Part shown: piece by piece, positions 510 through 54,868 of the stretch
Numbering within the stretch: position 1 is the stretch's first letter
Layout: every line of letters begins with the position of its first letter
Virus record (IMG/VR): IMGVR_UViG_3300042923_000502
Location: 32,001-96,000 of that record
Length of the DNA stretch: 64,000 nt
Source of the DNA: a virus
Direction: 5' to 3' (one strand)
Program-made: the position numbers and the translations under genes
Notes under the pieces: model-generated
What the model was told of the DNA's origin: nothing
The model's input: only the letters and a program-made list of their open reading frames with translations
The model's database searches: none

Positions 510-1786
510 GATAGATCACCTCATAGTGTTTTGTTATTTTATTTGGTGCTTGATCCTATTTTTATCATACCGACTATTAGATCATAAGTCAACATTATTG
601 GTAAACTTTTTGGTATTTTCTATAGTAGTGTACCAATATTTTCGCAGGGGTTCAGAAATGGGGTATAGGTCTATATATGAAAACACAGGAATTAGTTGAA
701 ACATAGCCCCCCTTCTAGGTGTGATGAAATAGATGGGATTGTGTGATTTTATCTTTGAGACGTAGACATATGATTAAATGTGGAATTTGTGTGAGAGGTG
801 TGTTTTACGACAACGCTGAAAATTGAGATATAGATAAGCGATACTGTATATAATCGGCTGACATTTGCGTTAACGAGTTTTTCCTTCTGCGTTAACAAAT
901 TAGACGTCAGAGTGTGATGATGGTGATTAGGTTGGGTGTAGAAATAGGGTTGATAATGTGTTGAAAATATTGCGACTGCGCGGAGTTGCAGTGCCCTGGG
1001 GGTATTGGAAATTAAAACCATCTTTTCCGGTTTTTACTAACCCCGCCTATGTCGCGGAATTAGCGTTCTACGACACGGAACCGGATTCACCTCATAAATG
1101 GTAAAAAGTGGGTAAAAATATGAATTTAGTGATATTATGAATAATTGGTAAATATTTACTTTTTTAAAAAATTTTTGATTTTTAAAAATTTCCCTTTTTT
1201 TGGCATCGTAGAAACGCGCGACCATAACACTAACCGCACGATGTAAGACACACCTATCACCTTAGCGACCATCTAGCGACCTCTATCCATCCAATCATCC
1301 ATCCAATCATCCACATAATCGCATACAACTATATTCAATCCTATCTTATGACCTCACATATTATCACCTCACATACAATCATATAAAACTATATTGCGCA
1401 CAATATAATAGCTTAACACTATATTGCACTATATTCTCTAGTTCTAAATATATCCAATATTCACCTATTAACCTACAATCTAATATCATCCTATCTAGTA
1501 TCATACTATTCAATTGCAAACAATATAATTTAACCCTATATAATGCAATCCTATCTAATAGCACACATTTAAATAGTTAACCTTTATATTAATCACTATT
1601 CTATCATGTAAAACTATATAGCTTCTCACTATATCATACAAAACTATATTGTACGCAATTTAATTCTATAATATATAATTGCATATCATTAATATAAATG
1701 TTAACTAATTGTATCCCAATAAATAGCCTACAATACTAACATACTAACATACTATACTAACATTATGCTAACATATGAATAAAAAG

Positions 1787-1803
1787 TTATCCACATATCC
1801 ACA
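1787..1803 (+). promoter_or_regulatory. DnaA box plus adjacent degenerate box
   Basis: TTATCCACA (perfect consensus) followed by TATCCACA. Confidence 0.45.
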
Positions 1804-2205
1804 CACGTAAAAACGTGCATACATTGCATACAATCTAATTTTATCCTATTCAATATCATGAAATATAATTGTAATCAATAATATAGTAATCAATATGTTA
1901 GTGATCATGATATATTCTCCTTTCAAATAAATGTAAATATATACTAAATAATGCAATAGTATACTATATCCATAATATACCAATATGCCATTATATACCA
2001 TATGATATTGTCATTATGATATGATTTAAATGTTATTATCTATATGTTAATATCTACACGATATTATTAATATGTATATATCAATATCCAATTATATCCA
2101 ATATATAAAAGTCAATAGGGAACACATGTTGCCCATTCTAAGCCCTTAAATCAATTGGAATGACCTAGTGTATGTAAGTAAGTTTATACATCGCTTAGAA
2201 ACGAT

Positions 2206-3230
2206 AGAAAGCGCTTTCTTGGGAAATAAGTTGATTTGACGCCATTTGCAAACGCTTACATTTTAAAAAAGAGCGATTATTTCCCAAAACGCATGAATAA
2301 ATATGCATAAAAGTAGCATATGTAATCGCTTACATGCATACTTATTCATCCATACACACAAATGAGTGATAAAATGAGGATAAATCGCACATATCTAATA
2401 AATAGATGAATTATCATTTTCCAATCTAAATATGATATAGATTCAAAATCACTGATTGAAAACGCTTTCATTATACATATATATCCATATTAGTAATATA
2501 AAGTGTTATCTGACAAATAATGTTTAAATGGATATATATGTAAGCAAAACATACCCATAATGACTTACATTGTCTAGGGAATAGAGAATCATAAAAACGT
2601 TGTCACAAGGATTGTAAGCCGCTTTAATCACGTTCAATAGTGCATCTAATACCCATGTTAGGGTACACATATTGAACGTCTTAGAAGGGCAAATAAAGCG
2701 CTTACATTTCAATCGTATGTAAGCCATAAAAAATGTAAATATTTTCAAAATGAATATTTATGCATAAAAATGTTTCGGATGCATACCCGAAAATTTTTCC
2801 GAACATTAAAAAAGTCTTATGTATCAAGGCTTTGTGGCACTTACTTTCTGATAGTGACATTCATAAGCAAAAGTTATCACTATGATAAAAAAATCAAAAG
2901 TCCTTATGTAGCAAGGGATTGCGTTATTTTTACCAATATATGTATATACATTAAAAAATCTAATTGTGTCAATATTGTGAACGAATTTTAAAATTTATTG
3001 AAATACGATATTGACATTTTAGAATCATTTGATCCATCATTTTTAAAACACGAACATTATGACCGATTATGGCACAATATATAGTCAAAATCCGAACATT
3101 AAGCCATTTTAGCCTTTTTAGCTTAAAAAATGAACTATAATGCGAACATAAATTCTCATATTGACACCTAAAATATGGATATTGTAAGCGCTTACTTTCT
3201 ACTAAAAATTGTCAATTGTAAACGCTTACA
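2206..3230. promoter_or_regulatory. Cluster of cre (CcpA/LacI-family)-like 14-bp operators
   Basis: AGAAAGCGCTTTCT 2206, TGCAAACGCTTACA 2247, TGTAATCGCTTACA 2321, TGAAAACGCTTTCA 2457, ATAAAGCGCTTACA 2693, TGTAAGCGCTTACT 3183, TGTAAACGCTTACA 3217. Confidence 0.6.
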
Positions 3231-3304
3231 TGCAAAATAATACGAACATATGGGAACATAATGTGTACATTTTGTGAAAACGGGCTTTTCAATGCTTTAT
3301 ACAT

Positions 3305-3333
3305 TTGCATACATTCCTATTACTTTGTAATAT
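3305..3333 (+). promoter_or_regulatory. sigmaA-like promoter at start of early region
   Basis: TTGCAT-17bp-TAATAT; composition becomes purine-rich right after it. Confidence 0.55.
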
Positions 3334-3339
3334 GGACAT

Positions 3340-4120
3340 ATCAACACGGCAACACGGCAACGAGAGCAACGAACGAACAACCCAACATTAAAAGAGGTTG
3401 AGCGTAGCAAGTGCGGACGACGGAAGCTACCCACACGCGAATAAGTGAGCAAAAGTAAGTCGCTAACTTATGGTAAGTGTGAGATAAAACGAATCAAAAA
3501 TGCTCACAAGGCTTGTACTTAGCGCAATGCCTAATACATGCTAAGGTGAAGTAATCACGGTTTAATGGGACTAGAAAGGGGAATGCAACCCAATAAGGGA
3601 TGTATGAGGAAAACAAGGTTTTGCTAAGTCTCACCTATCCTCACTAATACATGTGATGCAAAAAGATGGTTCTTTGAAAACTTAAAAGGTTTATGCCATA
3701 CCCAAAAAGGCATACATTGTATGAATTTAATCTCTAGTCTAATCGAATGGTTAAGACAATGAGGTAAGAAAATTTCTAGTAATAGTGAAGCGAATTGTCC
3801 AATGGAGACAATGAGCGCACATGAGCGGAAAAGCGTAACGCATTGCATACGTGAAGTGTTCATAAACTAGGAAAAGATTATTGCCTTATATGTATGAGAA
3901 TCTTAGACGAATTGGTTAACATTTATGTTAGCCAAGTGCGATTAAATAGCGTGTCAACGTTGGTCATACAATGTAAAAATCATCCTTTAATCATCCTAAA
4001 GGCGTTGCCTAAGATGCTATGGAGTACATATGTATTGTGTAGCATCTTGGACAACGTTGTAAGCAACTTACAAATAGTAGGTTACTTACAACGTTGTACA
4101 TACAACGAATAAAAAAATGG
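3340..4120 (+). ncRNA. Candidate long structured leader / ncRNA
   Basis: ~790 nt between promoter and first RBS with no RBS-led ORF; several stems (GTGAGCA/TGCTCAC, CTTAGC/GCTAAG, TATGCC/GGCATA, long hairpin 4051-4097). Confidence 0.4.
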
Positions 4121-4132
4121 AGTGATTAAATT

Positions 4133-4792
4133 ATGCACCTTCCACAAATTAAAGTACCCGATATGAAAACGGTTATCAATGTTCCGATTCTTTTGTCCAC
4201 TAAAGAATTTCCGATTTTGTCGGAATATAACTCTTTCAAGGCTACCGGAGAAGTATTCAAGAATGCCGGAGACAATAGCGCCTATAATCTAGCACCTATT
4301 CACGCATGGGTTAACATTGATCAATTACAAGGTGAAATGGGAGCGGCATCACGGTTAGGTTTTGGTATGTATGATTCCGACTTGGACAAAAAGAACGGGT
4401 TGTATTACACAATGAAGCTAGATGAAAAGGGAGAAGGTCGGCACGTAAACGGCACAATAACATATACTATTGTGGCGGTTATGGTTAAAGGCAAAAAATA
4501 TTCCGTGAAGAAAGATCACAAGTTACCGAACGGAACAACAATTCAAACCAAATTCGAGTTCTCTTACAATGGTAAGAGCGCGAAAAATTCCACACTTTTT
4601 AAGCTTTTGCGCAAGCTCATTGCAAACGGGTTGTTACAATTTGACAAAACAACTCACTTGGAATTGCTTGGAAAAGTTGACAAAGAAAAGAAAGACGAAA
4701 AGCCCGCAAGTGTGGACATTCCGCAAGCCCCAAAAGGTAAGAGACGTAACAAAAGCGCAAGCGCGGAAGAATCAAAAGCCGCAAATGCTTAA
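4133..4792 (+). CDS. First early protein, unknown function, basic C-terminal tail
   Basis: 219-aa ORF, RBS GGAGTGA. Confidence 0.85.
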   Translation: MHLPQIKVPDMKTVINVPILLSTKEFPILSEYNSFKATGEVFKNAGDNSAYNLAPIHAWVNIDQLQGEMGAASRLGFGMYDSDLDKKNGLYYTMKLDEKGEGRHVNGTITYTIVAVMVKGKKYSVKKDHKLPNGTTIQTKFEFSYNGKSAKNSTLFKLLRKLIANGLLQFDKTTHLELLGKVDKEKKDEKPASVDIPQAPKGKRRNKSASAEESKAANA

Positions 4793-4887
4793 TTTAAAAT
4801 TTAAAAATGATAGTAGTTAACAATTAGTAACTATGCTAATTGTTAACTATTCTTGATTTTTAAATTAAATGTAAAGGATGGTAAAAA

Positions 4888-4971
4888 ATGGAAATTAAAA
4901 AATGGAAATTAAAAAATGACAAGCCATGCCGCAAATGTGGCAAGCCGGGTTGCCGTTGTTCTTTACTCTAA
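4888..4971 (+). CDS. 27-aa Cys-rich microprotein
   Basis: RBS AAGGATGG; MEIKKWKLKNDKPCRKCGKPGCRCSLL; fills the slot between hairpins 1 and 2. Confidence 0.6.
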   Translation: MEIKKWKLKNDKPCRKCGKPGCRCSLL

Positions 4972-5052
4972 TTTTTGTAAGATATGGTATATAACACAAC
5001 TATTGTTATATACCAAATTGTTACAAAAATTTACAAAAAAGGATGATAAAAA

Positions 5053-5328
5053 ATGGAAAAAATTATCAAAATTGGAAATATTGTTATTTATGAGAAACTT
5101 TGTATGATAGATTTTTGGGTTGAATCTTCTATCGGTCGAAAAGATATGACACATAGCGAACTATACAACTTGCTAGTTGATTGCGACCAATGGAAAGTAA
5201 GAGATACAAGCGGCTTCATAACCTTTTGGCATGGAAAAATAGAAGTAACCGCATTTGTTAAGGAACGCGCAACAAGGGCATATTTTAACCCGGAATTAGT
5301 AGAAACAAATGCCGATTTTGCGGTATAA
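5053..5328 (+). CDS. Early hypothetical protein
   Basis: ORF with AAGGATGA RBS between hairpins. Confidence 0.8.
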   Translation: MEKIIKIGNIVIYEKLCMIDFWVESSIGRKDMTHSELYNLLVDCDQWKVRDTSGFITFWHGKIEVTAFVKERATRAYFNPELVETNADFAV

Positions 5329-5412
5329 CAATTTTTGGAAGAACTAGCATATAACATTAATTAAGTTATATGCTAACTTGTTTCAAAAATTTAACAAAAG
5401 GATGATAAAAAA

Positions 5413-5796
5413 ATGGAAATAAATCTAAGTTTTAGCGAGTTTCAACAAAAAGCGAGCATTTCCCAATTAATGGAAATTTTCAAAAAATTGGAAGAAAAAC
5501 AAAGTTTTTTAAACTTTCCATTTGAAACAATGAGAATTGAAATAACACTTTCCTTTAATTATTACAATTACATAAAAAAAGGAAAAAAAGTTATATCTAG
5601 TAACATTTCTTTGTTAGTCGATTTGCATCATAGAATAAATAACAATTCTTGGCACATGGATTGGATAAGATTGGATAATATTACATTAACTAGTTCACAA
5701 GTAGAATATTTTAACAATCTTGGCTTTACATTTGAGAATGAAGTTAAACAAGTCGCTAACAATGAAAATAGTCTATCAATAATTGTAAAAGATTGA
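5413..5796 (+). CDS. Early hypothetical protein
   Basis: ORF with AAGGATGA RBS between hairpins. Confidence 0.8.
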   Translation: MEINLSFSEFQQKASISQLMEIFKKLEEKQSFLNFPFETMRIEITLSFNYYNYIKKGKKVISSNISLLVDLHHRINNNSWHMDWIRLDNITLTSSQVEYFNNLGFTFENEVKQVANNENSLSIIVKD

Positions 5797-5858
5797 AAAC
5801 ACGAATATTAGTTCGTGTTTTTTCTTGTTTTACAATTAAACTAAAAAGGATGATAAAA

Positions 5859-6350
5859 ATGGAAATTATGAAACAATATGCTAATTTAAAAATTGCTTAT
5901 GAAAGAGCGAAAGAAGAAGATAAAAATAGTATTAAGGATGAATTAAGGACGTTTCTTTATAACAATCCAAGCATATTATTTCCAATGATTGGTAATAAAT
6001 TATGGGAATATATAGGTGACTATGATCACATAAAAGAGGTTTTACAAGGTGAAGAGGAAAGGGACAAAGAAGAGGGAATAAACGAAGGCATGGTCTATTA
6101 TGATGCTACTATCGACTATACCGCAAAAGCTTTAGAAGCGGTTTTACGAATGGTTTTAGAATGGCACATCGAAAGCAATTTTAAATATGTTTCTTTTGGG
6201 CAAACTTACGTGAGCTTTTGGATTTATGCCGAAAAAGAAAATAAAACAAGATTTAACATTGAAACGGATATTTTACACATCATGGAAAATGAAATAAATG
6301 GTAAAAATGATTATGAAATGGTAATTGATGAAAGTGAATATATAGTATAA
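5859..6350 (+). CDS. Early hypothetical protein (acidic)
   Basis: Start moved to ATG 5859 after AAGGATGA RBS. Confidence 0.8.
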   Translation: MEIMKQYANLKIAYERAKEEDKNSIKDELRTFLYNNPSILFPMIGNKLWEYIGDYDHIKEVLQGEEERDKEEGINEGMVYYDATIDYTAKALEAVLRMVLEWHIESNFKYVSFGQTYVSFWIYAEKENKTRFNIETDILHIMENEINGKNDYEMVIDESEYIV

Positions 6351-6430
6351 TTTTTGTAAGATAGGCAATATAAGTAAAATTTACTTATATTGCTAATTGT
6401 TACAAAAATTTAAAAAAAGGATGATTGCAC

Positions 6431-7021
6431 ATGAGAGAAGTTAAACCATTTGAAAAAGTCGGAGAAATTAGGAATTCTTATGTAACATACAAATATTACG
6501 ATTATACCCAATATTCTAATCATAAAGATGAAATGTTAAAAAATGGGTATAGAGAAATAAACCAAATGTCATTAGAAGAAAATGACATTTGGTGCAAATT
6601 TGTAGAATACAAGGAAATTCCATTCCATGAAAGAAATTTTTCTAATTTAGATTGGGATAATAACGAAAGTGAATTGCAAGAAATTATGGATACTATGGCA
6701 AGCAATCCGCTTCAATGGGTAATCCCAAGATTTGGAGCAAAAGCGCGGCAAACAATGGGCGAATTATTTAAATACAATTACAAAGTATTTTATGAAGTAT
6801 GCGACTTATTAATAACACCAATTATGGAATCACATGGAGACTATGAAATATTTGGTGAAAATTTATTTAATGTCATTTTGTCAAATGTTAACAAATACGG
6901 TATTTTAGAAAATGACAATTATAAAATGCATCTTTCTAATGAATACGGTGTAACCGTCGAAACCGATTATTATAGAGGTGGTACTTGGGGAAGCTTTACA
7001 ATTGACGAAAGCGGATACTAA
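6431..7021 (+). CDS. Early hypothetical protein
   Basis: ATG 6431 after AAGGATGA RBS. Confidence 0.8.
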   Translation: MREVKPFEKVGEIRNSYVTYKYYDYTQYSNHKDEMLKNGYREINQMSLEENDIWCKFVEYKEIPFHERNFSNLDWDNNESELQEIMDTMASNPLQWVIPRFGAKARQTMGELFKYNYKVFYEVCDLLITPIMESHGDYEIFGENLFNVILSNVNKYGILENDNYKMHLSNEYGVTVETDYYRGGTWGSFTIDESGY

Positions 7022-7108
7022 CAATTTTTGAAAGAAAGAGCATATAACACAAACGGTTATATGCTCCATTGTTTCAAAAATTTAATAAGTAAAAGGAATG
7101 ATTGTAAA

Positions 7109-7372
7109 ATGATGGTAGTAATAGAGAGACAGGAAAGAGTAGAAGTCAAGTCAGTGATTGGTGCAAGATTACGTAAGATGATTAAAAAGTTGCCGCAATA
7201 CATCAAAACTGATATTTTTAAAATGATACATAATACATCAGGTGATTATGCTTGTTACGGTGAGACATATGTTGAACTACATTTCAGCAAGCAATGCCTG
7301 TCAGCAATTACATTGGATGCTATAAATATTGATGATAATACATCAAAACGTTTTACGCTTATCATCGAATAA
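7109..7372 (+). CDS. Early hypothetical protein
   Basis: ATG after AAGGAATGA RBS downstream of hairpin. Confidence 0.75.
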   Translation: MMVVIERQERVEVKSVIGARLRKMIKKLPQYIKTDIFKMIHNTSGDYACYGETYVELHFSKQCLSAITLDAINIDDNTSKRFTLIIE

Positions 7373-7462
7373 GACATAAAATTTGAAAAGATAGAAAGAT
7401 ACGAATATAAATTCGTATCTTTTAATTGTTTTCAAATTTAACAAAAAAAGGATGATAACACA

Positions 7463-7699
7463 ATGGGAAATAGAGAAGTTATTGCTTGCTGGGGAATTTC
7501 AAATGTTGCGTCATTAAACGTATGGGAAATGAGATCAGATGAAGCAATGTTGGTGGGAATTAATGACGATGAACCTGAGTGGTGCGAAATTGAATTTATA
7601 CCAAATGAAGAATCTTTAAGTGATGATTACGAAACAGTTAATGTAATTAATTTCCATGGAAATATATACCGACTTGACGAATGTATGAGAGTTAGATAA
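7463..7699 (+). CDS. Early hypothetical protein (acidic)
   Basis: RBS AAGGATGA. Confidence 0.8.
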   Translation: MGNREVIACWGISNVASLNVWEMRSDEAMLVGINDDEPEWCEIEFIPNEESLSDDYETVNVINFHGNIYRLDECMRVR

Positions 7700-7801
7700 T
7701 TCAGTGACTCATAGTGCCATCTATACAACTATATATAGATGGTATTATTGATTTACCGAATAACACAAAATCATATAACGCTTGAAAGGATGTATACCAA
7801 C

Positions 7802-8113
7802 ATGAAAACTTATGCAATACATGTAAGAATGAAGCCTATTCAAATTGTAGAAGCTTCTAACCGCGCTGACGCTATTGAAATTATCCGTAAAAAGTTTGTC
7901 AATGCTTTTATTACAAAGGTAGAAAAGACACAGAAAAAAGCGCTTTGGTGTGATCGTATTGTCCTTGTAACGCCTAATAACACAAAGTACAAGCCTTTCA
8001 CAGTTACATATTTTGAATATTGTGACGAGAATGCTTTACAAGTTGCCAGAGACAATGGATATGACAAAATCGGCACAATAGAAATTTTTAATTCGGTTAC
8101 AAATGTCATATAA
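7802..8113 (+). CDS. Early hypothetical protein
   Basis: ATG 7802 after AAAGGATG. Confidence 0.75.
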   Translation: MKTYAIHVRMKPIQIVEASNRADAIEIIRKKFVNAFITKVEKTQKKALWCDRIVLVTPNNTKYKPFTVTYFEYCDENALQVARDNGYDKIGTIEIFNSVTNVI

Positions 8114-8139
8114 AATAACATCATGAAGGAGAATTTCAC

Positions 8140-8346
8140 ATGAAAAAAATCCAAATCAGAAATTTGTTTGATGTTGCCGTTGAAATGAAATTGTCAGCGA
8201 AATATTATGCGGTTATCTTATTTCAACTTAACAAAGAAATGGCAATAAAACTTAGACGGCAATGGATAACCGGACGTATAACACAAATTGAATATAGTGA
8301 CAGATTGGTTGATTCCATTTTAAGAGAAGTACAGTCTATCAGTTAG
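8140..8346 (+). CDS. Early hypothetical protein
   Basis: RBS AAGGAG. Confidence 0.75.
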   Translation: MKKIQIRNLFDVAVEMKLSAKYYAVILFQLNKEMAIKLRRQWITGRITQIEYSDRLVDSILREVQSIS

Positions 8347-8452
8347 TGAATGACAATGACATTAAGCCATAACACGGCTATATATGTAAGGCTTAATGTT
8401 ATTAGTGAGTTACTAACTACAAATTATCAATATATAAAAAGGATGGTTAAAT

Positions 8453-8746
8453 ATGGAAATGAAGAAGAATTCTGATGTGATTAAGGCGTTTCTCATGGGA
8501 TACAAGGAAGGACAGGCAAACAATCTTAGAATTGAAGAAAGAGCAGGAAGAACAGCTTTATTAAACTTTGATACAGTTTTGGCAGAAATTATGGATCACG
8601 GCAAAGATATTCATATTAACAAGAGTAATTACGGCAGAAGCACTACACGAATTCAGAACGAATTGATCCGCAAGGTTGAAGAAGACAAGAGTATCAGAGT
8701 ATTTTACTACTTTGGTATTGACAAGCACAGCAAAATATTGGTTTAA
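8453..8746 (+). CDS. Early hypothetical protein
   Basis: RBS AAGGATGG. Confidence 0.8.
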   Translation: MEMKKNSDVIKAFLMGYKEGQANNLRIEERAGRTALLNFDTVLAEIMDHGKDIHINKSNYGRSTTRIQNELIRKVEEDKSIRVFYYFGIDKHSKILV

Positions 8747-8758
8747 GGAGAGAAGACA

Positions 8759-8914
8759 ATGACAAAACGAACTCAGAAAGAATTATTGGAATGGGACTTG
8801 GAAAATGCGCGTGAATCATGGACAAAATCAGAAACTCAAGAACAATCAGCAATGTGGTATTCAGAGATGAAGAAAATTGAATCTCAGATTGATGAAATGG
8901 AGACACAGAAATGA
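8759..8914 (+). CDS. 51-aa hypothetical protein
   Basis: Found by hand; RBS AAGGAG; MTKRTQKELLEWDLEN... Confidence 0.65.
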   Translation: MTKRTQKELLEWDLENARESWTKSETQEQSAMWYSEMKKIESQIDEMETQK

Positions 8915-9072
8915 CAGAAAAATATTATCAAATACAAGCTGATCTAAGGGAAGCAAATAAAAGCGGAGACTTAAAAAAGATTAAGCGACTCAGAAACAAG
9001 TTAACAAAGTGGCAGATTGCTTATGGAGCGTATGCACCTATAACACAAGAAAATTGCCACAAGTATGATTGA
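8911..9072 (+). CDS. 53-aa hypothetical protein
   Basis: Found by hand; ATGA overlap with previous gene; stop abuts hairpin. Confidence 0.65.
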   Translation: MTEKYYQIQADLREANKSGDLKKIKRLRNKLTKWQIAYGAYAPITQENCHKYD

Positions 9073-9163
9073 TTCAGTGAATGATAGTCCTCTATAACAT
9101 ACAAGTATAGAGGACAATTGATTTATTGAATTACAAATAATATAAAAAAGGATGATAACACGA

Positions 9164-9361
9164 ATGTCAATGACCAAACGAGAGATCAAAAAAGCATCAG
9201 AATTAGTTCCAAACTTCATTAAAGTATTTGAGAACGATGTGCAAGAAGACATTCATACAGACGCAAAAGAAATGACATATGAAGAATTTGAACTGATTTG
9301 CCGATTGCATGAAAAGCTAACACATGCTATAAACTATGTTGACCAGAGTATTTTCAAATAA
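9164..9361 (+). CDS. Early hypothetical protein
   Basis: RBS AAGGATGA. Confidence 0.7.
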   Translation: MSMTKREIKKASELVPNFIKVFENDVQEDIHTDAKEMTYEEFELICRLHEKLTHAINYVDQSIFK

Positions 9362-9451
9362 TTCAGTGATTCAAAGTGCGTTCTATAATACATATTATAG
9401 AGCGTATTATTGTTTTACCGAATTACACTAAATTAAAAAGGATGATAACAC

Positions 9452-9739
9452 ATGAGCAAACTTTATAAAGGAAATGTAAAAACATCGGACGTACATTATC
9501 AAGAGGTTATTCTTACAGCACAAAGAAATGGTAATGACATAAACGGAAATAGCAAGTACAAGGTTCAGGTTTGGATGATTGTAAAAGATGATCACAATAT
9601 GGAATCAGGTACTCTATGGAGTCCTGTGGTAAAAGGATATAGAAAAAATAAGTATGACGAATACACATTAGTATCATCTGACCTTGATCATGATGTTACA
9701 CGCTTTATTGAAGCTTTTGAAAAAACGGTTAGAGCTTAA
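9452..9739 (+). CDS. Early hypothetical protein
   Basis: RBS AAGGATGA. Confidence 0.8.
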   Translation: MSKLYKGNVKTSDVHYQEVILTAQRNGNDINGNSKYKVQVWMIVKDDHNMESGTLWSPVVKGYRKNKYDEYTLVSSDLDHDVTRFIEAFEKTVRA

Positions 9740-9828
9740 TCAGTGATAAAAAGTGTCTTACATGATCATATTATGTAAGGCATTATTGTATTACTGATTT
9801 TAAATTACAATGAAAAGGATGATATAAC

Positions 9829-10257
9829 ATGACAACAAAACCATTTACAACCAGAGGGCAAATTGTAGCGGTAACACTTGACAACAATGGTAAAGAGCTT
9901 GCAGTAAGTGTATGCATGAATCCAGACAATATCAGCGAAGCCATTTTGGAAGCTTCAAACGGTGATACGCTTATAGTCAAGTGGGAACGTATTACATTTT
10001 GCAGAGACTATAAACCTTTTGAATTGAATCGCCTTAACAAAGGAGATAATGTTCAAGGCAGAGAAGTTTTGAAAGTAAAAAACTTTCCGCATGATCATCA
10101 CTTACAACTTGTTCTGTGCAAGTGGAAAGAGTTCAGATTCGTTGTATGGCAATACAACATAGAATCAGAAGGTTTTAACTTCGGATACTATTACACATCA
10201 ATAGAAGATGCTGAGGAAAAATTTAAAGAACGTATGGAATACTATGACATCAAGTAA
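9829..10257 (+). CDS. Early hypothetical protein
   Basis: RBS AAGGATGA. Confidence 0.8.
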   Translation: MTTKPFTTRGQIVAVTLDNNGKELAVSVCMNPDNISEAILEASNGDTLIVKWERITFCRDYKPFELNRLNKGDNVQGREVLKVKNFPHDHHLQLVLCKWKEFRFVVWQYNIESEGFNFGYYYTSIEDAEEKFKERMEYYDIK

Positions 10258-10349
10258 ATTCAGTGATTCAAAATGCCTTATATAAACCATATTATATAAG
10301 GCATCATTGCTTTACTGAATAACATTACATTACAAAAGGATGATAAGTT

Positions 10350-10553
10350 ATGTACAAATATGAAAAAGAACTGATCAAGATTGTGGAGAGTGTAGGTGAT
10401 GGCAGAACTATTGCTGATCTTTCGGAAAAAAGCTTTAGAAACCGCGAATTTGAAAGCTTTGAAGCTCATGAAATTTATGATATTGCAAGAGGTTCCAGTC
10501 ATTTCAGATACGATGAACGGACTCAGAAGGTTTACTTAGTTAAAAATTCATAA
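10350..10553 (+). CDS. Early hypothetical protein
   Basis: RBS AAGGATGA. Confidence 0.75.
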   Translation: MYKYEKELIKIVESVGDGRTIADLSEKSFRNREFESFEAHEIYDIARGSSHFRYDERTQKVYLVKNS

Positions 10554-10626
10554 TTCATATGTTGCCTTTTACATATAGTAAAGGGCAAAAATGTATTATG
10601 AATTATATAAGAAAGGATGATATTAA

Positions 10627-11016
10627 ATGTCAGATAGAAAAAAATATAGCTTCAATTATAGCTATGATGAAGTTGTATCGTTTAATCATAAATTGTTGAA
10701 CGACATTTCAGATCCAGAGTATGACTACAAATTGACAACTGACTTCAAAGATGCAATTTATCTTTTGCATGATGCCAAAATGATTTCAGGCGGCAAAGCA
10801 GAAGCAGGTTTTCGGCATATTGATCATCGTATGATTGAATGCACAATGGAGATTGACAGATACAATGACAATTTTTGGGATGAAGTCCATGCCAGATTTA
10901 AAATTGTACGCCTTGTACCAGAAAGTGAATATGCATTGATCAAAAAAGGTCAGGTTTTAACACGCATTCAGGAATATTTAATTAAAGAAAATGGGTATAT
11001 AATAGAAGAATATTAA
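10627..11016 (+). CDS. Early hypothetical protein
   Basis: RBS AAGGATGA. Confidence 0.8.
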   Translation: MSDRKKYSFNYSYDEVVSFNHKLLNDISDPEYDYKLTTDFKDAIYLLHDAKMISGGKAEAGFRHIDHRMIECTMEIDRYNDNFWDEVHARFKIVRLVPESEYALIKKGQVLTRIQEYLIKENGYIIEEY

Positions 11017-11034
11017 AAGAGAGGAAGATATAAA

Positions 11035-11241
11035 ATGGCAATGATTCAGTCACACTATGAGATCAACGTTTCACTTAATGGTAGGCACTTATTTGCGACA
11101 GCGGAGAGAAGTTGCGTAACACAGGACGATTTAAATAAGGTATTAGACATATTTGTTGCCAAGTTTCCAAAATCAGAAGGATATAAAATATCTTACTCTC
11201 ACATTAAATGTGAAGGAAGATCAAAGGAAGTCAGAAACTAA
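11035..11241 (+). CDS. Early hypothetical protein
   Basis: RBS GAGGA. Confidence 0.75.
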   Translation: MAMIQSHYEINVSLNGRHLFATAERSCVTQDDLNKVLDIFVAKFPKSEGYKISYSHIKCEGRSKEVRN

Positions 11242-11333
11242 TTCGGTCAATGATAGCACCTTGTATAAACATATTATATAAGGTGTAATTGATTCACTGA
11301 ATTAACAAATAAATTAAAAAAGGATGATTAAAT

Positions 11334-11993
11334 ATGTTTATGACAAAACAATATCCGACAGTTTACGAGAAGTTTGGTGATGTCAATCCTATTGAACATG
11401 GCGGAGGTCTTTACACAGAAATTTCCGATGGCGTATTCGATATTATTCATATCGAACCAGATCAAAACAGATGTGATCTTGGTTGGTTTAATGTGGTTCA
11501 AGTTGACACAAACGATTCTTGGATTCAGGAGAAGAAAGAAGGCTTGTTTTCGACTTATGATATGAACGAATCACAGAATAATAGCATCGACTTTGCTCTT
11601 GCCTGCATCGGATATTTTGGAATCGAAAATTTTGGTGGAGATCAAAGTTACGAAATGCTGATTGACAAAAGGGATATTGAAGAGTCATTGAATGAAGTTA
11701 TTACAGAAAACTTTATCCAAGATGATAACACTATCAGATGCAAGGTTATCAATTATTTCGATGTATGGGGCAATCAGAAAGATGGTTATCAAGTTAATAA
11801 CATGTGCAATGAAGGTGAAATCACAGTTCCTAAAGATGCATCCAACAGAGATGTTGTCGATGCATTAAAGAAAATGGGATTCTTCAAAAAACATGTTCGT
11901 ATGAATATGTGTCAGTTTGAAAGTGCATATATCGACGTATGGGTAATTAACGATTCAAAAGGAAAACCTGTTTGTTGCGTTGAGCCACTATAA
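11334..11993 (+). CDS. Early hypothetical protein (probably two domains)
   Basis: 219 aa, RBS AAGGATGA. Confidence 0.8.
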   Translation: MFMTKQYPTVYEKFGDVNPIEHGGGLYTEISDGVFDIIHIEPDQNRCDLGWFNVVQVDTNDSWIQEKKEGLFSTYDMNESQNNSIDFALACIGYFGIENFGGDQSYEMLIDKRDIEESLNEVITENFIQDDNTIRCKVINYFDVWGNQKDGYQVNNMCNEGEITVPKDASNRDVVDALKKMGFFKKHVRMNMCQFESAYIDVWVINDSKGKPVCCVEPL

Positions 11994-12087
11994 CATTCAG
12001 AACTAAATACTATGTCTTTCTACTCATATAGTAGGAAGACATAAATTGTTTTCTGAATAAAAATAATATTGCAAAGGATGATAAACA

Positions 12088-12303
12088 ATGCGTATAACAC
12101 CCGAATACAGAAACCACTTGAAAGTTGAAGGACATAAAGGCACATGGTATGTTGTCGATGAAACTAATCACAATGACCAACAGGTTTATCTGTTGGAGCA
12201 TGAGAAATACGGTGAAGATGTTGCCTGTCTTATTGTTGACAAGGATTTGAATGTTCTGGTTGACGATGTTTGGAATGGATTCGATGATTTAGAGTATTTG
12301 TAA
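12088..12303 (+). CDS. Small acidic protein resembling a domain of Bacillota mobile-element polyvalent proteins
   Basis: GTWYVVDE...LLEHEKYGEDVACLIVD...DVWNGFDDL; family recalled from memory, not searched. Confidence 0.6.
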   Translation: MRITPEYRNHLKVEGHKGTWYVVDETNHNDQQVYLLEHEKYGEDVACLIVDKDLNVLVDDVWNGFDDLEYL

Positions 12304-12329
12304 AATCAAACATCAAAGGAGAATAACAG

Positions 12330-12488
12330 ATGAAATCACTAAAAAGAAGATATTATTGTTCAGCTAAGGACAACAAAGGTCAATTGACACAATTTGAGTT
12401 AGTTGCTGAGAGCAAGAAAGAAGCAGTGCAGAGATGCAAAGATGAATGCAAAAGACTTGATTATGTATTCATGGAAGTAAGCTTATAG
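12330..12488 (+). CDS. 52-aa hypothetical protein
   Basis: Found by hand; RBS AAGGAG. Confidence 0.65.
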   Translation: MKSLKRRYYCSAKDNKGQLTQFELVAESKKEAVQRCKDECKRLDYVFMEVSL

Positions 12489-12579
12489 CAGGTAGTTTCA
12501 GAATTGATTGTGCCTTACATTACAACATTATATGTAAGGCATTAATGAGTTATTGAAACTCAAGAAAGGATGATAAACA

Positions 12580-12798
12580 GTGATTGTTGGATATTATTGT
12601 CACAAAGAAGACAAGGAATTAACAGGATTAAATGTAATGGTAGTATTGAAACATGATAATGGACAATTAGAAGCGTATTGTCCATCAGAACAACACTTTC
12701 CATTGACAGAAGAATATTTTAATGAATGTGTTAGAATAACAAAAGAGCAATATGTCAATGCCAGCTCGTTGTGGACTCCGGCTGAATACTTAAACTAA
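12580..12798 (+). CDS. Early hypothetical protein
   Basis: GTG start after AAGGATGA. Confidence 0.75.
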   Translation: MIVGYYCHKEDKELTGLNVMVVLKHDNGQLEAYCPSEQHFPLTEEYFNECVRITKEQYVNASSLWTPAEYLN

Positions 12799-12821
12799 AT
12801 TAGAAAAGAGGATGATAACAT

Positions 12822-13238
12822 ATGACAAGTCAAAGAAGTGTTGCTGTAGAAAGATTTGAAAAGTTGGAAGAAATGGGATATTCTCACACGGATATTCTTA
12901 ATTACATTCTTTTCAATTGGATGAACGCTGATGATGCATGTGAAAGCCTTGAAGGATTCGCAGGAGACATGGACTTCTCCTTTGAAGAAGATGAAGCAGA
13001 AGAAGGCACAGAAAATGAAATTGAACCTACCTATGAAGTAGGCGACACCGTAACAATAGCAAGTGACAATGAAAATTATTTTGAATACTTAGGAAAAGAC
13101 CTTACAGTAGCCAAAGTTTCAACAAGTATTGAAGATCATCCTGGTTTTGATGACTCAGTAGGAGAAGCCTTGTATGACCTTGAGACGGAAGATGGCGAAC
13201 CTGTACCATTTTCGGTGTATGAATATGAATTGAATTGA
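12822..13238 (+). CDS. Highly acidic early protein
   Basis: Very D/E-rich; RBS GAGGATGA. Confidence 0.8.
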   Translation: MTSQRSVAVERFEKLEEMGYSHTDILNYILFNWMNADDACESLEGFAGDMDFSFEEDEAEEGTENEIEPTYEVGDTVTIASDNENYFEYLGKDLTVAKVSTSIEDHPGFDDSVGEALYDLETEDGEPVPFSVYEYELN

Positions 13239-19417: not shown

Positions 19418-19843
19418 GTGAAATTCATGATTAGAAAGTCTATTCATATGGTAGATGAAATATTAGATCAGTCTATTATTCCACTATCTCGTAGAAAGGC
19501 AGATAATAGAAGGGTTATTGATGGTGACTCTATTCGGATGGATTCTCATAGATACTGGACTTTCAAGATGAAAGGTACTCATTGTGTTTGTTGTGGAATT
19601 GAAGGTGTATTCTTTGCAAAGGAAAAACACCTTGAATCAGACAACAGATTCCACTTCAATCTGTATGGATTGGACGAATTCGGCAATGAGGTATTAATGA
19701 CAAAAGATCATATTATGCCCAAGTCTAAAGGCGGCAAAGATCACATCGACAATTATCAGACTATGTGTGTAAGATGTAACGTAGCAAAAGGAGATAAATT
19801 GCCACACGAGTATAACGGAGGTCAGAAAGTAAATTGCAGCTAA
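19418..19843 (+). CDS. HNH endonuclease
   Basis: CxxC ... TKDHIMPKSKGGKDHIDNYQTMCVRCNVAKG. Confidence 0.85.
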   Translation: MKFMIRKSIHMVDEILDQSIIPLSRRKADNRRVIDGDSIRMDSHRYWTFKMKGTHCVCCGIEGVFFAKEKHLESDNRFHFNLYGLDEFGNEVLMTKDHIMPKSKGGKDHIDNYQTMCVRCNVAKGDKLPHEYNGGQKVNCS

Positions 19844-22869: not shown

Positions 22870-23334
22870 ATGAATGCTTTTGAAGAATTAGAACATTCCA
22901 GAGTAGTTAATGAATTAATGGAAATTCAGGATAAGCTTAAAAATTCATTCTTCATAGAGCATGATGTTATTAAGTGGAATTATGAAAAGGCAAAGAACGA
23001 TGGCAGAGAAAGAGAATCAATGGTTTGGCGTGAACTCATGATTGCGTCATGTAAAGGTCATGAATATGAAGATAGCTTTGATGATCTTGGCAATTATCAG
23101 GGATGTATCTGCATTCATTGTACCGCTAACATTGACATGAGTGAGAGCGAACAAGTGGCTCTTATTGTGAAAAAGAATTGTGAAACATGTATATTCAGAG
23201 GTGGTGCTAACCTGAATGAACTTTTTTGCAATCATCCGACCATTGATACACTTGATAAGAATCAGATTGATGAATGGATGAACAAGTATTTTGAGGACAG
23301 TAAAAATTGCATACATTGGAAAGGTAAAATATAG
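22870..23334 (+). CDS. Cys-rich hypothetical protein
   Basis: CIHC, CETC; RBS AAGGAGTG. Confidence 0.75.
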   Translation: MNAFEELEHSRVVNELMEIQDKLKNSFFIEHDVIKWNYEKAKNDGRERESMVWRELMIASCKGHEYEDSFDDLGNYQGCICIHCTANIDMSESEQVALIVKKNCETCIFRGGANLNELFCNHPTIDTLDKNQIDEWMNKYFEDSKNCIHWKGKI

Positions 23335-23336
23335 TG

Positions 23337-23640
23337 TTGCAATTCTATGTAGTGTATGATAAGATGGTGTTAGTGAAAGATAAAACAAAAATAAGGAGTG
23401 ATTAAAAGTGGTTAAAATGTTCCTGCAATTAAAAGCTTGCTCCGAAAAGTGATTGACTTGTTATTTCTTATATGGTAATATAGGTACAACTTGGCAAATT
23501 GCTAAAAGTCACCAGAGTTTAGGCAGAAGAATAAAAAAATATTTTTCAAAAACAAGGTTTAACTTTTGGAAAATGTGATTATAATTAAGGTAAGAAGAGT
23601 TGAAAAACACGTTGACTTCATTAATCGAAAGTGATATGAT
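23337..23640 (+). promoter_or_regulatory. Tandem sigmaA promoters upstream of the DUF262 gene
   Basis: TTGCAA-17-TAAGAT 23337; TTGACT-17-TAATAT 23453; TTTAAC-16-TATAAT 23558; TTGACT-17-TATGAT 23612. Confidence 0.6.
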
Positions 23641-23700
23641 GGAGTCAACAAATTAAACAAGTAGAACAAAAAACTAAAATTTGAAGGGAAAGTGATTAGT

Positions 23701-25194
23701 ATGGCGGCAAGAGGAAATAGAAACCCTAAAAAAGATGTAGTTCCGGCAACTCAAGGCACAAGCGCACTCGCTGTGCTTAACAATGAAGACGAACAAGCGC
23801 TTGATCTTGATATTTTCCACAAGCTTATGACAATCCGTTCTATTCAAGAGCAAAAGCGCATGATTCGCTTTGACTTGGCGATTCAACGTAATGAAGTATG
23901 GAAAGAAAACAAAAACGGCGTGTTCCAACAATCATTGCTGATCGACTCCGTACTTCGCAAATATCCGATTGGTCAAGTGTTTGTCATCCAAATGGGAGAC
24001 GAATTCATGTGGATGGCTGACGGTAAGCAACGTTGGACAACAATCTTCAAATACCTTGACAACGGTTTTCCACTTGCTAAGGGAACTCGTCCCGTCAAAG
24101 CTAAAGACCCGGAAACAGGCGAAGTAAGAATGTACAACATTGAGGGCAAGTTTTTCAAGGACTTGGATAAAGTTCTTCAAAACAAAATCCTCAACTATGA
24201 AATGGATGTTAAGCATTTGACGAATGCTACACCAGCGGAAATCGAAGAAATCTTCTTGCGTCTTAACAATGGTACTCCATTGACCAAGATTGAATTGACT
24301 CGCGTAGAGCTTGGTGAAGAAAATATGGTCAAAGTTGCGAAGATTGCCGACAAGCCATTCTTCAAAGCATTGACCGCAATTTCTGCCGACTCCCGCAATC
24401 GTTTCATTGACCATGAAATGATCTTGCAAACACTTATGATCATTTCTGGAAGAGATACCGACATTTCCGGCAATGAGATTAGAGAATTTGCAAAAGTCGT
24501 CAAGACAAACGGACTTTCCGATGATGTTGTTGAATTGATGATCAAAGTTGCTGACTTCCTTGAAGCTGCATTTAGCCAATTCATTGCTATCAAAGACGGA
24601 AAACCGGATATGAAGATTTTGAAACAAATTCTCAAGAAGGTTCATGTGCCGATTGTGGTCAATACGGCGGTTGAAACAATTTATCGTGAAGGTCAAGAAA
24701 TTGAAGCAGAAGTGTTTGGATTGTGGGCAAAAGACTTCCTTTATGATAGATACAAAACGGGTTCAACCTATGGTCGTGCTTGCGCAGGTGGTTCCGCTAA
24801 GAAGGACAATGTTAAAACTCGTATCAAAGAAATGAGAGCGGATTTTAACAAGCACATTGAAAAAATCAAACAAACGTATGAAGAAAATGCGGATATCCGC
24901 GAACAAATCAAGAAAGAACGCGAAGAAGCGGAAGCCGCAGAAAAGCTTCGCTTGGAAGAAGAAGCGCGTAATGCTGCGGAAAATAATGGTGAGGGCAATG
25001 ACGACAAAGGCAATGATGCCGATGATGTAGTAAACGAAGAAAATAATACACCAGAAGAACCTTCCGGCGACGACTCCGATAAAGATAAAGGCGAAGAAGT
25101 CAATGACTCTGATTCGGATGACAAAGACAAGGTTGAACCGGAAGACAAGGGTTCGGAAGATGATAAGCCGGAAGATGGCAAGGAAGAAGAATAA
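23701..25194 (+). CDS. DUF262 (ParB/Srx-like, GmrS-type) domain protein with acidic C-terminal tail
   Basis: IQRNEVW, LIDSVLRKYPI, DGKQR, IFLRLNNG; last ~75 aa D/E/N/K-rich. Confidence 0.85.
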   Translation: MAARGNRNPKKDVVPATQGTSALAVLNNEDEQALDLDIFHKLMTIRSIQEQKRMIRFDLAIQRNEVWKENKNGVFQQSLLIDSVLRKYPIGQVFVIQMGDEFMWMADGKQRWTTIFKYLDNGFPLAKGTRPVKAKDPETGEVRMYNIEGKFFKDLDKVLQNKILNYEMDVKHLTNATPAEIEEIFLRLNNGTPLTKIELTRVELGEENMVKVAKIADKPFFKALTAISADSRNRFIDHEMILQTLMIISGRDTDISGNEIREFAKVVKTNGLSDDVVELMIKVADFLEAAFSQFIAIKDGKPDMKILKQILKKVHVPIVVNTAVETIYREGQEIEAEVFGLWAKDFLYDRYKTGSTYGRACAGGSAKKDNVKTRIKEMRADFNKHIEKIKQTYEENADIREQIKKEREEAEAAEKLRLEEEARNAAENNGEGNDDKGNDADDVVNEENNTPEEPSGDDSDKDKGEEVNDSDSDDKDKVEPEDKGSEDDKPEDGKEEE

Positions 25195-25206
25195 GCTATA
25201 AGCTAA

Positions 25207-25245
25207 AAAGCGCCATATAGAAATATGTGGCGCTTTCTATTCTTT
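25207..25245 (+). terminator. Rho-independent terminator
   Basis: AAAGCGCCATATA-GAAA-TATGTGGCGCTTT. Confidence 0.75.
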
Positions 25246-25326
25246 AGTATAGTTTCCCTTGACTTTTTGATCTAAGTGAAATTATACTAAGTAATAGATA
25301 AAATGAAAATGAAGGGATTTGACATA

Positions 25327-26022
25327 ATGAAAAAAGAGTCAATCAAAGAAAGCATCCGAAAGTTGCTTGTAAAAGCAGGAGATAGTGGAGCTACACTTGC
25401 GGAGAAAGATGAAGCATATCTGATGGCTCAACGTTTGATGTTGAAGCACAAGATTGATAAAGGTGAGCTAGATGAAAAGACAAGTGCTCAAAAGAGATTA
25501 GAGGAGATATATCACAAGCCAGTGACAGACTATATAACCCTTAATTTTTGGCATAGAGGATTGGCGAGAATTATTTCCAAAAACTTTAAATGCCTACACT
25601 ATATTGATTATTGGCAGGGTGCATGGAATTCCAAAGATGCCAATAAGAAAAGATTGATGATGTTTGGTATAGTAGAGGATGTAGAGATTGCCGCAGATGT
25701 TTATGAGAGTGCATTTAAAGCTATCGAAACACATTCCAAAGATTACATCAACTCTAGAGAAGATGTACCTAAACACTTGAGAACAGGAGTAAAAAATGAC
25801 TTCATTCAAGGATATCTTGACGGACTCGCTGCTAAATTTGAAGATCAAGTTGCCAAGTATCAATTGGTTATTGCGGTGAATGCATTGGTAAAGAAGGAAC
25901 ATGATGACATGGGATTTGGGAAAGCAAGGGCAGCAACAAGATCAAGCGCTCATGATGCTCATGCTACAACTAGCGGATACATTAAAGGAAGAAGCTTTGC
26001 AAGTGGAGAATTAATCAAGTAG
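25327..26022 (+). CDS. DUF2786 domain protein
   Basis: IRKLL.KA...EKDEAYLMAQRLMLKH N-terminus; FIQGYLDGL. Confidence 0.8.
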   Translation: MKKESIKESIRKLLVKAGDSGATLAEKDEAYLMAQRLMLKHKIDKGELDEKTSAQKRLEEIYHKPVTDYITLNFWHRGLARIISKNFKCLHYIDYWQGAWNSKDANKKRLMMFGIVEDVEIAADVYESAFKAIETHSKDYINSREDVPKHLRTGVKNDFIQGYLDGLAAKFEDQVAKYQLVIAVNALVKKEHDDMGFGKARAATRSSAHDAHATTSGYIKGRSFASGELIK

Positions 26023-26149
26023 TTCTCCACTCTACTTTACTAAAGGAAGTGATAACATGAAATTTGTAGGTGGAGCTATTGTAGTCATTGCATTTGTTTT
26101 GTTGGCGATTATCACAAAATAGACATAAACAAAAGGGTGTGTAAAAGCA

Positions 26150-26359
26150 ATGGTAAGGCTAAATGTGCCAAAAGATGAATCTTTAGAAGTTGTTCTTAGG
26201 AAATTTGAAAAGTCGAAAAAGGGACAGCATGATTACATGGAGTTGTTTGTAGTGTTTTTTCGTTGCATTAGACCTGACAATGGCTTGACTTGGGAGAGAA
26301 TCGAAGAGATTATTGTAAAAGTTCTGAGTGAAAGAGAGGTCAAGTCCGATGATAACTAA
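26150..26359 (+). CDS. Hypothetical protein
   Basis: ORF in operon. Confidence 0.6.
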   Translation: MVRLNVPKDESLEVVLRKFEKSKKGQHDYMELFVVFFRCIRPDNGLTWERIEEIIVKVLSEREVKSDDN

Positions 26360-26903
26360 GGTTGTAGCAGCATATGGCAGAATGTTGACTCTTACATGTG
26401 ACAATAATTGTGAAAAAGCTTTTGGAATACGAGAAAGACCATATATTCAGTTAGATGGCAATGTTGACAATATCGCTTGGTTATCTGATGATGAAGTTGG
26501 AATTGCTCCGATTGATCCAGGCACAGATGAAGGTGGTCATAGGAAGCCAACATGTGAAAAAGAAAAGTTGAATAAATGGTGCTTTCGTCAGTGTGAAAGA
26601 TGCAGTGAATTCAATCAAGGCGAAGAAGTTATTGTTAAAAGTTTCGACAAAAGAGTTTACAACATTGACAACAATGTAAATAAGATCATGTCCCTATTGG
26701 AAACCTACGACAAAATATTTATTGGAGAATCAGATAACAGGGACGAAGAATTGAAAAAGGAATCAGAACGTATTACTCCTGAATTCAAGTCTTTGATTGA
26801 AAACATGACTCTTGATGAATTAAAAGCACTTCTTCAAAGCGATTTAAAGACAACATATTTCAAGTTTCGCATATTTTGTCAGGCAAAGGAATTAGGTCTT
26901 TAA
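26349..26903 (+). CDS. Hypothetical protein
   Basis: RBS GAGG; CDNNCEKAFG...NKWCFRQCERC. Confidence 0.75.
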   Translation: MITKVVAAYGRMLTLTCDNNCEKAFGIRERPYIQLDGNVDNIAWLSDDEVGIAPIDPGTDEGGHRKPTCEKEKLNKWCFRQCERCSEFNQGEEVIVKSFDKRVYNIDNNVNKIMSLLETYDKIFIGESDNRDEELKKESERITPEFKSLIENMTLDELKALLQSDLKTTYFKFRIFCQAKELGL

Positions 26904-26924
26904 TAATTTAAAGGAGAGAATGAA

Positions 26925-27251: not shown

Positions 27252-27289
27252 ATAAAAGCTTACTTTTATCTACAAGGAGATGGTGAATA

Positions 27290-27733: not shown

Positions 27734-27734
27734 T

Positions 27735-27995: not shown

Positions 27996-28043
27996 TTCTA
28001 ACCCGATGTAATATAAAATAAAATTCAATAAGGCGGTGTACCA

Positions 28044-28343: not shown

Positions 28344-28360
28344 GACTGTTCCCTTTTTTT
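28329..28360 (+). terminator. Rho-independent terminator
   Basis: GGAACAGTCT-CCTA-AGACTGTTCC followed by T7. Confidence 0.8.
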
Positions 28361-53618: not shown

Positions 53619-53641
53619 AAGATAAAATGAAATTACATTTG

Positions 53642-53678: not shown

Positions 53679-53682
53679 ATCC

Positions 53683-54865: not shown

Positions 54866-54868
54866 GGA

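Follow-up and report, generated by a model that had tools for sequence, protein, structure and literature searches.

We analysed a window of 64,000 nucleotides (bases 32,001-96,000) of a single 170.5-kb contig, the IMG/VR virus record IMGVR_UViG_3300042923_000502, and found in it a zone of six kilobases nearly devoid of the trinucleotide CWG (CAG/CTG). The zone, at window positions 997-7129 (6,133 bp; positions are those of the window unless stated otherwise), held only three CWG sites, at 2452, 2510 and 2848, each present as 5′-CTGA on the plus strand, and no site at all from 2851 to 7129. Base composition predicts 101 sites for 997-7129. At the CWG rate of the remaining window 86 would be expected, and the Poisson tail for this second comparison is 5e-30. 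The ban on CWG is real and far beyond chance. It recurs in related phages around the first gene of the zone, here called z4133 (4133-4792).

In a largest-gap scan of all 2- to 5-mers over the whole 170.5-kb genome, CWG was the top outlier. The 4,282-bp CWG gap alone had a log10 P of -21.5, and the outliers next in rank were mostly 4-mers that contain CWG. The zone is thus the most extreme k-mer gap of the genome. All other trinucleotides within it were present at 0.63 of expectation or more, and CTA/TAG and TAA were somewhat enriched. The other 164 kb of the genome contain about 2,280 CWG sites, and the return at the right of the zone is immediate, with 12 sites in 7130-7705 and 20 in 8460-9020. 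A preliminary description of this DNA had given these counts from reading alone. All of them were reproduced, including the empty stretch 2851-7129, the three 5′-CTGA sites and the numbers beyond the zone.

The preliminary description had also proposed that selection acts here on double-stranded DNA, and it had named a codon-preserving shuffle as the comparison to be made. When synonymous codons of the zone genes were shuffled within the codon pool of the zone, 27.9±3.7 CWG were expected at codon junctions and none was observed; the minimum over 2000 shuffles was 17. The pool used for these shuffles already lacked CAG and CTG codons. The same proteins, if encoded with the codon usage of the 11 genes that follow, were expected to carry 42.5±4.5 CWG. 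The non-coding part, 997-4132, had 3 CWG, compared with 45±6.4 in first-order Markov simulations. The ban is evident from the codon-junction shuffles, in non-coding DNA and on either strand, from which we concluded that selection is on the DNA duplex and not on codons, as had been proposed.

The ban is specific to CWG. In the count and diversity of 4- and 6-bp palindromes the zone was average among 6.1-kb windows, and we rejected the idea that it avoids restriction sites in general. Because the zone is not poorer in palindromes generally, a single agent (or a single family of them) with a CWG core as its target is implied. CWG was purged in every flanking context. For this reason the CCWGG and GCWGC systems, whose sites the preliminary description had named as having a CWG core, are insufficient alone. 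The genome as a whole shows another pattern of avoidance: GGCC is absent (175 expected), as are ATCGAT, CTTAAG, GAGCTC, GCATGC, GCTAGC, GGATCC and TCGCGA; GGWCC, CCWGG, CCGG and CTGAAG are strongly depleted, and many other palindromes are below 0.2 of expectation. Depletion on this scale points to strong pressure from restriction, acting on DNA that probably carries no modification. We found no C5 methyltransferase in the phage genome and only half of an N6/N4 methylase domain. On these grounds we rejected CWG methylation by the phage, and the alternative raised earlier, that the phage modifies CWG, finds little support.

Homologs of z4133 in public data numbered five, and all five lie within a CWG-free zone. 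In the closest, contig L035 (96% identity in z4133), no CWG was present over at least 3.3 kb. The 166.8-kb IMG/VR genome G001/L001 (61% identity) had 8 CWG where about 64-72 were expected, L032 (60%) had 3 where 84 were expected, L034 (48%; GC content 0.41) had none where 56 were expected, and the 163-kb phage L030 (40%) had 2 where 69 were expected. In all five relatives, CWG returned abruptly to 22-28 per kb. In a gap scan of G001, CWG was the second most extreme k-mer, the first being AAA, which falls within the repeat array of the zone. The same depleted zone, for which the preliminary description had suggested looking in related phages, was found with variable cargo in every relative that carries a close z4133 homolog. 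A density of 22-28 per kb just past the zone was seen in this genome also (7130-13000) and in the contigs L030, L031 and L034; the genome as a whole averages 13 per kb, about half as much, and the density past the zone is at or above the composition expectation.

Both zone edges were compared in two relatives, G001/L001 and L032, and proved homologous in both. In L001 and L032, as in this genome, the left edge comes after a GCAGTGCCCWGGGG motif that is conserved. A block at 955-1255 can be aligned across the window, L001 and L032, and the DNA to its left cannot. The right edge in G001 and L032 is at the first codons of the ortholog of the gene at 7109-7372, the first gene past the zone here, in which the first CAG (7130) lies in the eighth codon. 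Between these edges the content differs. G001 lacks the five genes of 4888-7021, L035 has only some of them, and in L030 the zone ends straight after z4133, the sole gene inside; the zone end lies at a variable distance, 0.7-3 kb past the start of z4133. Every in-zone gene of the compared relatives lacks CWG. Of the six zone genes that had been listed as candidates for a countermeasure, the one at 4133 is conserved across the clade and the other five are not.

A gene for a 53-amino-acid protein shows the dependence on position directly. It has no CWG in G001, where it is inside the zone, and 4 in this genome (8911-9072) and 5 in L032, where it is outside; one of the differences between the in-zone and out-of-zone copies is a CAG-to-CAA change. 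The tolerated sites are also conserved in place. Nearly all are 5′-CTGA on the plus strand and fall in operator-like boxes, themselves conserved, that precede z4133 by 0.9-1.7 kb; the tolerated sites of the relatives occupy the same boxes as those of this genome. One tolerated site was lost here, where CATTCTGAC of the relatives is CATTATGAC.

Other DNA served as a control or gave no further members. The terminal redundancy of SPO1 and the first-step-transfer DNA of T5 showed no comparable CWG ban. Searches of IMG/VR with two neighboring genes returned the same contig only, or nothing, and neither near and distant DNA searches nor a z4133 protein search of a phage collection gave a match. Taken together, these comparisons mark the ban as a selected, position-dependent trait of one clade.

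The gene z4133 is the first open reading frame (ORF) after the promoter cluster of the zone, and it is the only zone gene conserved across the clade. Its product of 219 amino acids is basic (35 K+R versus 24 D+E; isoelectric point (pI) 9.55), with a lysine-rich tail. No match, including none to HNH, was found in Pfam, PHROG or PADLOC, a profile search against PDB sequences gave none either, and a protein atlas yielded nothing usable. A profile search of 1.8 billion representative proteins returned a tiny family only, of about 10 sequences, with E-values from 8e-9 to 2e-42.

Several members of this family are longer than z4133. P0008 (279 amino acids, Paenibacillus, PF01844) and P0010 (405 amino acids, P. 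glacialis) carry a C-terminal HNH domain, P0006 (328 amino acids) has a weak HNH_2 match, and the homolog on a Chengkuizengella contig (L037), 41% identical, has an HNH-like tail. The Paenibacillus HNH endonucleases P0010 and P0008 match z4133 over their N-terminal 145 residues; with hhalign, the z4133 profile aligned to residues 1-145 of P0010 with a probability of 99% and an E-value of 5e-18. Many EVE-HNH proteins share 66-67% identity with P0008 and P0010 in the HNH module, and the N-terminal domain of these EVE-HNH proteins is a modified-base reader at the position that matches the z4133 domain. Some related HNH proteins that this search also returned bear the name 5-methylcytosine-specific restriction protein A. 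As for genomic neighborhood, both genes lie in islands: P0008 adjoins an Mrr-type endonuclease, a DUF4145 gene and a Cap4-like nuclease, and P0010 adjoins DUF3800 and Ymh-family genes, next to an integrase. Judged by this homology, z4133 is a stand-alone N-terminal, putatively targeting domain of McrA/EVE-HNH-type nucleases, in which the lysine-rich tail replaces the nuclease.

A first AlphaFold model of z4133, built from 6 sequences, was too poor for use (predicted local distance difference test (pLDDT) 45). With a 10-sequence alignment, the N-domain (residues 1-186, window 4133-4690) was modeled with a pLDDT of 85 and a predicted template-modeling (pTM) score of 0.82, as a curved beta-sheet with helices. 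The model may represent a way of folding, not described so far, by which HNH nucleases target DNA. The phage has two small stand-alone HNH ORFs of about 141-147 amino acids, at 19418-19843 and 27290-27733 in the early/middle region, which are unrelated to the P0008-type HNH module. The possibility that z4133 works with a split HNH partner encoded by the phage was rejected, as there is no P0008-type module in the genome.

The zone lies at a divergence point, from which late genes run leftward and early/middle genes rightward. Its left edge is in the conserved non-coding block of about 300 bp at 955-1255, a candidate direct terminal repeat or terminus. The block has a palindrome, CCCTGGG, at 994-1000 and holds the final CWG sites before the zone, at 976, 989 and 996. 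It is followed at 1240-2100 (860 bp) by an array of short, AT-rich repeats that recur every 15 bp and are almost free of G on the plus strand, with repeat families spaced by 15, 30 and 45 bp. Its repeats are degenerate and could be iterons, a centromere or a terminal repeat array. There is a lone perfect DnaA box at 1787, and DnaA boxes are not above chance. An operator- or promoter-like cluster on the plus strand at 2100-3340, as read from the sequence, has GTAAGCGCTTAC-type palindromes, CGAACAT boxes and TTGACA-type promoters, and it houses the three tolerated sites; its elements are kept in L035, L001 and L032. A promoter-like site read in the same way, TTGCAT-17 nucleotides-TAATAT (3305-3333, plus strand), is conserved in four genomes.

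Ahead of z4133 lies a conserved plus-strand leader of about 790 nucleotides, or a non-coding RNA, at 3340-4132. Near its 3′ end are two hairpins in which compensatory changes among six genomes keep the pairing; 15 of the 37 predicted pairs were changed on both sides. No Rfam family matched the leader. Downstream of z4133, the variable cargo on the plus strand (4888-7021) comprises a possible 27-amino-acid ORF (4888-4971) and genes at 5053-5328, 5413-5796, 5859-6350 and 6431-7021. These all lack CWG and have hairpins between them, and their products matched no family in PHROGs, Pfam or PADLOC. Two of the cargo proteins, encoded in 5859-7021, are acidic (pI 4.55 and 4.69). They are candidates for anti-restriction proteins of the DNA-mimic type, yet they are not conserved in the clade.

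The intergenic hairpins with a AATTTTTG...CAAAAATT outer stem are at 4970, 5330, 6349 and 7023. The final one (7023-7082, plus strand) has a CWG-free outer stem and marks the right edge of the zone, just before the plus-strand gene at 7109-7372. Hairpins with TTCAG...CTGAA stems were found at 10259, 11996, 13239 and 13716. The earlier remark that the hairpins follow the ban holds in substance, with CWG-free stems in the zone and TTCAG...CTGAA stems from 10259 on.

By its gene content, the genome belongs to a distant relative of Bacillus phage Tsamsa (Tyrovirus/Joanripponvirinae), a giant temperate siphovirus. The portal, terminase, tail proteins, PhoH, DnaB, primase and other proteins are 25-55% identical to those of Tsamsa and collinear with them (29-46% for terminase, portal, DnaB and PhoH). 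A 2,341-amino-acid ORF of tape-measure size, TubZ-like and tyrosine-recombinase genes and 17 tRNAs were also identified, and with its integrases and TubZ the phage looks temperate. The Tsamsa group is alike in genome size (160-170 kb), GC content and module order, and in its tyrosine recombinases, tRNA clusters and plasmid-like module (PMC9703825). Tsamsa differs from this phage in having neither a z4133 homolog nor a CWG-free zone; its sole CWG gap is a low-complexity repeat array that misses many k-mers. Compared with Tsamsa 153-165 kb, the segment from a RecD-like helicase over TubZ to the integrase (positions 23000-30400 of the genome, shortly before the window begins) lies inverted.

This genome has a second, partially CWG-poor region at 52700-59000, with an observed/expected ratio of 0.17-0.27 against a genome median of 0.67. 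Its genes encode an SLT transglycosylase, a PcfJ-like protein and the ORF with half an N6/N4 DNA-methylase domain. It is a plasmid-like module and may have its own history of CWG avoidance.

Phages of the Tsamsa group have mapped direct terminal repeats of 284-285 bp and T7-like packaging (PMC3903500, PMC9703825). In Tsamsa, some 1.2 kb of G-poor and AT-rich repeats of short period come after the terminal repeat. The zone start described here resembles this mapped terminus in layout: a conserved block of about 300 bp, with an abrupt onset of conservation, is followed by the 860-bp array, and the 8-mers of this array are most concentrated in the array of Tsamsa that follows its terminal repeat. 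The 3.1 kb of non-coding DNA that opens the zone is the only large region of the genome that is neither coding nor tRNA. We think it fairly probable that a genome end lies within 950-4100. The block at 955-1255, with a length near the 284-285 bp of the Tsamsa group, is the candidate terminal repeat. The ends of the contig itself (genome positions 1-184 and 170379-170562) share a 184-bp repeat with one indel inside a coding region, which is an overlap of circular assembly and not a terminal repeat. The contig ends of the relatives had no terminal sequence in common. We rejected them as markers of physical ends; they are probably assembly breaks at repeats.

How might the ban be explained? In the explanation that we prefer, and that we consider about equally likely to hold or to fail, the zone is first-entering "stealth" DNA, which evades a CWG-reading nuclease until z4133 is made. 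The zone would be the leading, pre-early segment of the genome, made up of the probable genome end, the repeat array, the promoters and operators, the leader, z4133 and a changeable set of small genes. Before the first phage protein is present, this DNA would already have entered and be under transcription from promoters of the host type. A host DNA-targeting activity with a CWG core would act on the phage DNA that is present before the countermeasure, and this would be why selection on the duplex has cleared CAG and CTG from the zone. z4133, as the first protein made, would mask the feature read by the nuclease or compete for it, and the CWG-rich remainder of the genome would then be safe.

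The sequences show the ban, its dependence on position, its conservation, its specificity for CWG and the homology of z4133; we infer that the zone is first to enter, that the host has a nuclease that reads CWG and that z4133 neutralizes this nuclease. The sharp edge points to a discrete boundary, perhaps one set by staged entry or by the point at which the first transcription unit ends. A more specific version is possible and is put forward only tentatively: an as yet undescribed nuclease-type defence of Bacillales might read the CWG core only, modified or not, and might be answered by the stealth segment, entering and expressed first, together with a captured, nuclease-less targeting domain of a fold new to solved structures that shields CWG sites or competes at them.

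Several observations weigh against the stealth-DNA explanation. To our knowledge, no defence system reads bare CWG, and the CCWGG (DISARM class 2) and GCWGC systems cover only a fraction of the purged sites. DNA binding by z4133 is putative. The predicted fold of its N-domain gave no convincing match (E-value above 0.06 with Foldseek against PDB, best Z of 4.3 with VIA-align wide, template-modeling score below 0.5 in the ESM Atlas). The Chengkuizengella contig, which encodes the HNH-tailed homolog, shows no ban at all. No distinctive stop signal marks the right edge, where the hairpin is like those between all neighboring genes. With regard to a genome end at the zone, a search for the Tsamsa terminal repeat in this genome gave nothing above the background score, the early gene array of Tsamsa is about 7 kb from its end with nine leftward genes between, and the synteny with Tsamsa is broken by inversion at the zone.

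Among the alternatives, self-immunity survives best, though we regard it as rather unlikely. An early phage function, either z4133 with a nuclease or a cargo protein, would cut or mark host DNA at CWG, so that the phage DNA already in the cell must lack CWG. Nickases of Chlorella viruses have 3-base sites and provide a precedent. The homology of z4133 to the targeting domain of HNH nucleases fits this explanation, as does the presence of two small HNH ORFs elsewhere in the phage. Self-immunity was already proposed by Davison for T5 A1 and the first-step-transfer DNA (bioRxiv 10.1101/866236), and A1 is sufficient for degradation of host DNA (bioRxiv 10.64898/2026.04.02.716235). However, z4133 has no nuclease domain and the genome has no homolog of the P0008 HNH module. 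The other 164 kb, with their approximately 2,280 CWG sites, would still need protection. The temperate look of the phage (integrases, TubZ) makes obligatory wholesale destruction of the host unlikely, and the full-length homolog in L037 comes without any k-mer ban.

A replication or packaging device is less probable still, and we doubt it. If CTG, on either strand, were the start trinucleotide for the primase of the phage or the host, then a terminal zone free of priming would yield a long 3′ end in single-stranded form that promotes concatemers, or the zone might have another role at an origin or terminus. Recognition of trinucleotides is typical of primases, which start at CTG in the case of E. 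coli DnaG and at GTC in the case of T7. The iteron-like array with its 15-bp period, the perfect DnaA box and the probable position of the zone at a terminus would also agree with such a role. DnaG primases of Firmicutes, however, are reported to prefer CTA/TTA over CTG, and DnaA boxes are not enriched. The ends would share only about 300 bp, so that it is hard to see what purpose a lack of priming over 3.4-6.1 kb would serve. An expression unit is a better fit for a zone of variable length with a cargo of early genes.

History or mutation bias without selection, whether a CWG-less donor segment or a local process such as deamination of methylated CWG, would explain the enrichment of CTA/TAG and TAA as decay products, but it is very improbable given sharp homologous edges across lineages of 40-96% identity with different cargo, purging of the same gene only when it is in the zone, codon-junction purging that preserves protein sequences, and conserved boxes that keep a few 5′-CTGA, one of which was removed here (CATTCTGAC to CATTATGAC).

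The tentative version with a Bacillales defence would imply staged genome entry in a siphovirus of Gram-positive bacteria. The pattern predicts where the genome end lies and how far the first stage of DNA entry reaches. It also predicts a CWG-reading nuclease or binding protein in the host group, with one small gene family as the countermeasure. The link between z4133 and HNH proteins suggests a route by which phages capture domains of defence proteins as inhibitors. Scans for position-restricted k-mer gaps may reveal leading regions and unknown defence specificities generally.

The precedent that the preliminary description had drawn from T5 and T7 is real, and its logic, which the preferred explanation follows, has support from experiments (PMC10644984, PMC12455610). 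T5-like phages resist restriction unless sites fall in the first-step-transfer DNA (PMC10644984); in T5 and BF23, restriction, CRISPR and Ssp defences work only with sites there (PMC10644984; bioRxiv 10.1101/866236). In Autographiviridae, motifs in the leading region decide the sensitivity to Type I restriction (PMC12455610). The first-step-transfer DNA of T5 and BF23 is a leading segment with pre-early genes, in which sites are selected against, and the zone would be its counterpart. T5 differs in that a 10-kb terminal repeat contains its first-step-transfer DNA, which extends to a large injection-stop region rich in repeats and DnaA boxes; neither the repeat nor the stop region was seen here. 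A T5-like stop signal made of DnaA boxes was rejected, as the single box is not an enrichment and the right edge is an ordinary hairpin. No homologs of A1, A2 or dmp were found among the zone proteins with PHROG, Pfam and PADLOC. The first-step-transfer DNA of T5 shows shifts in composition and no near-total k-mer ban, whereas here a 3-bp motif is erased over 3.4-6.1 kb.

T7 and other Autographiviridae have short terminal repeats, early promoters near the end and an anti-restriction gene that is expressed first (gene 0.3, Ocr), an arrangement that this phage would share. Unlike the acidic DNA mimics Ocr and ArdA, z4133 is basic. The boundary here is sharp rather than kinetic, and the phage is a 170-kb temperate siphovirus with a Gram-positive host. 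With the McrA/EVE-HNH nucleases, the likeness is that the z4133 domain sits where the EVE reader sits; the difference is that z4133 has no HNH catalytic domain, which P0008 and P0010 carry as PF01844. Classical palindrome avoidance is seen genome-wide, and the signal of the zone, in CWG only, is different in kind. Site avoidance in T5 and T7 has so far been known only for ordinary restriction sites of 5-8 bp, and no more than statistically. The present zone has lost almost every copy of a degenerate trinucleotide, with edges sharp to about 100 bp, in genomes whose z4133 identity goes down to 40%. We read the feature as leading-region site avoidance, unusual in its three-base target, its near-total purge, its sharp and conserved edges and its link to a captured targeting domain.

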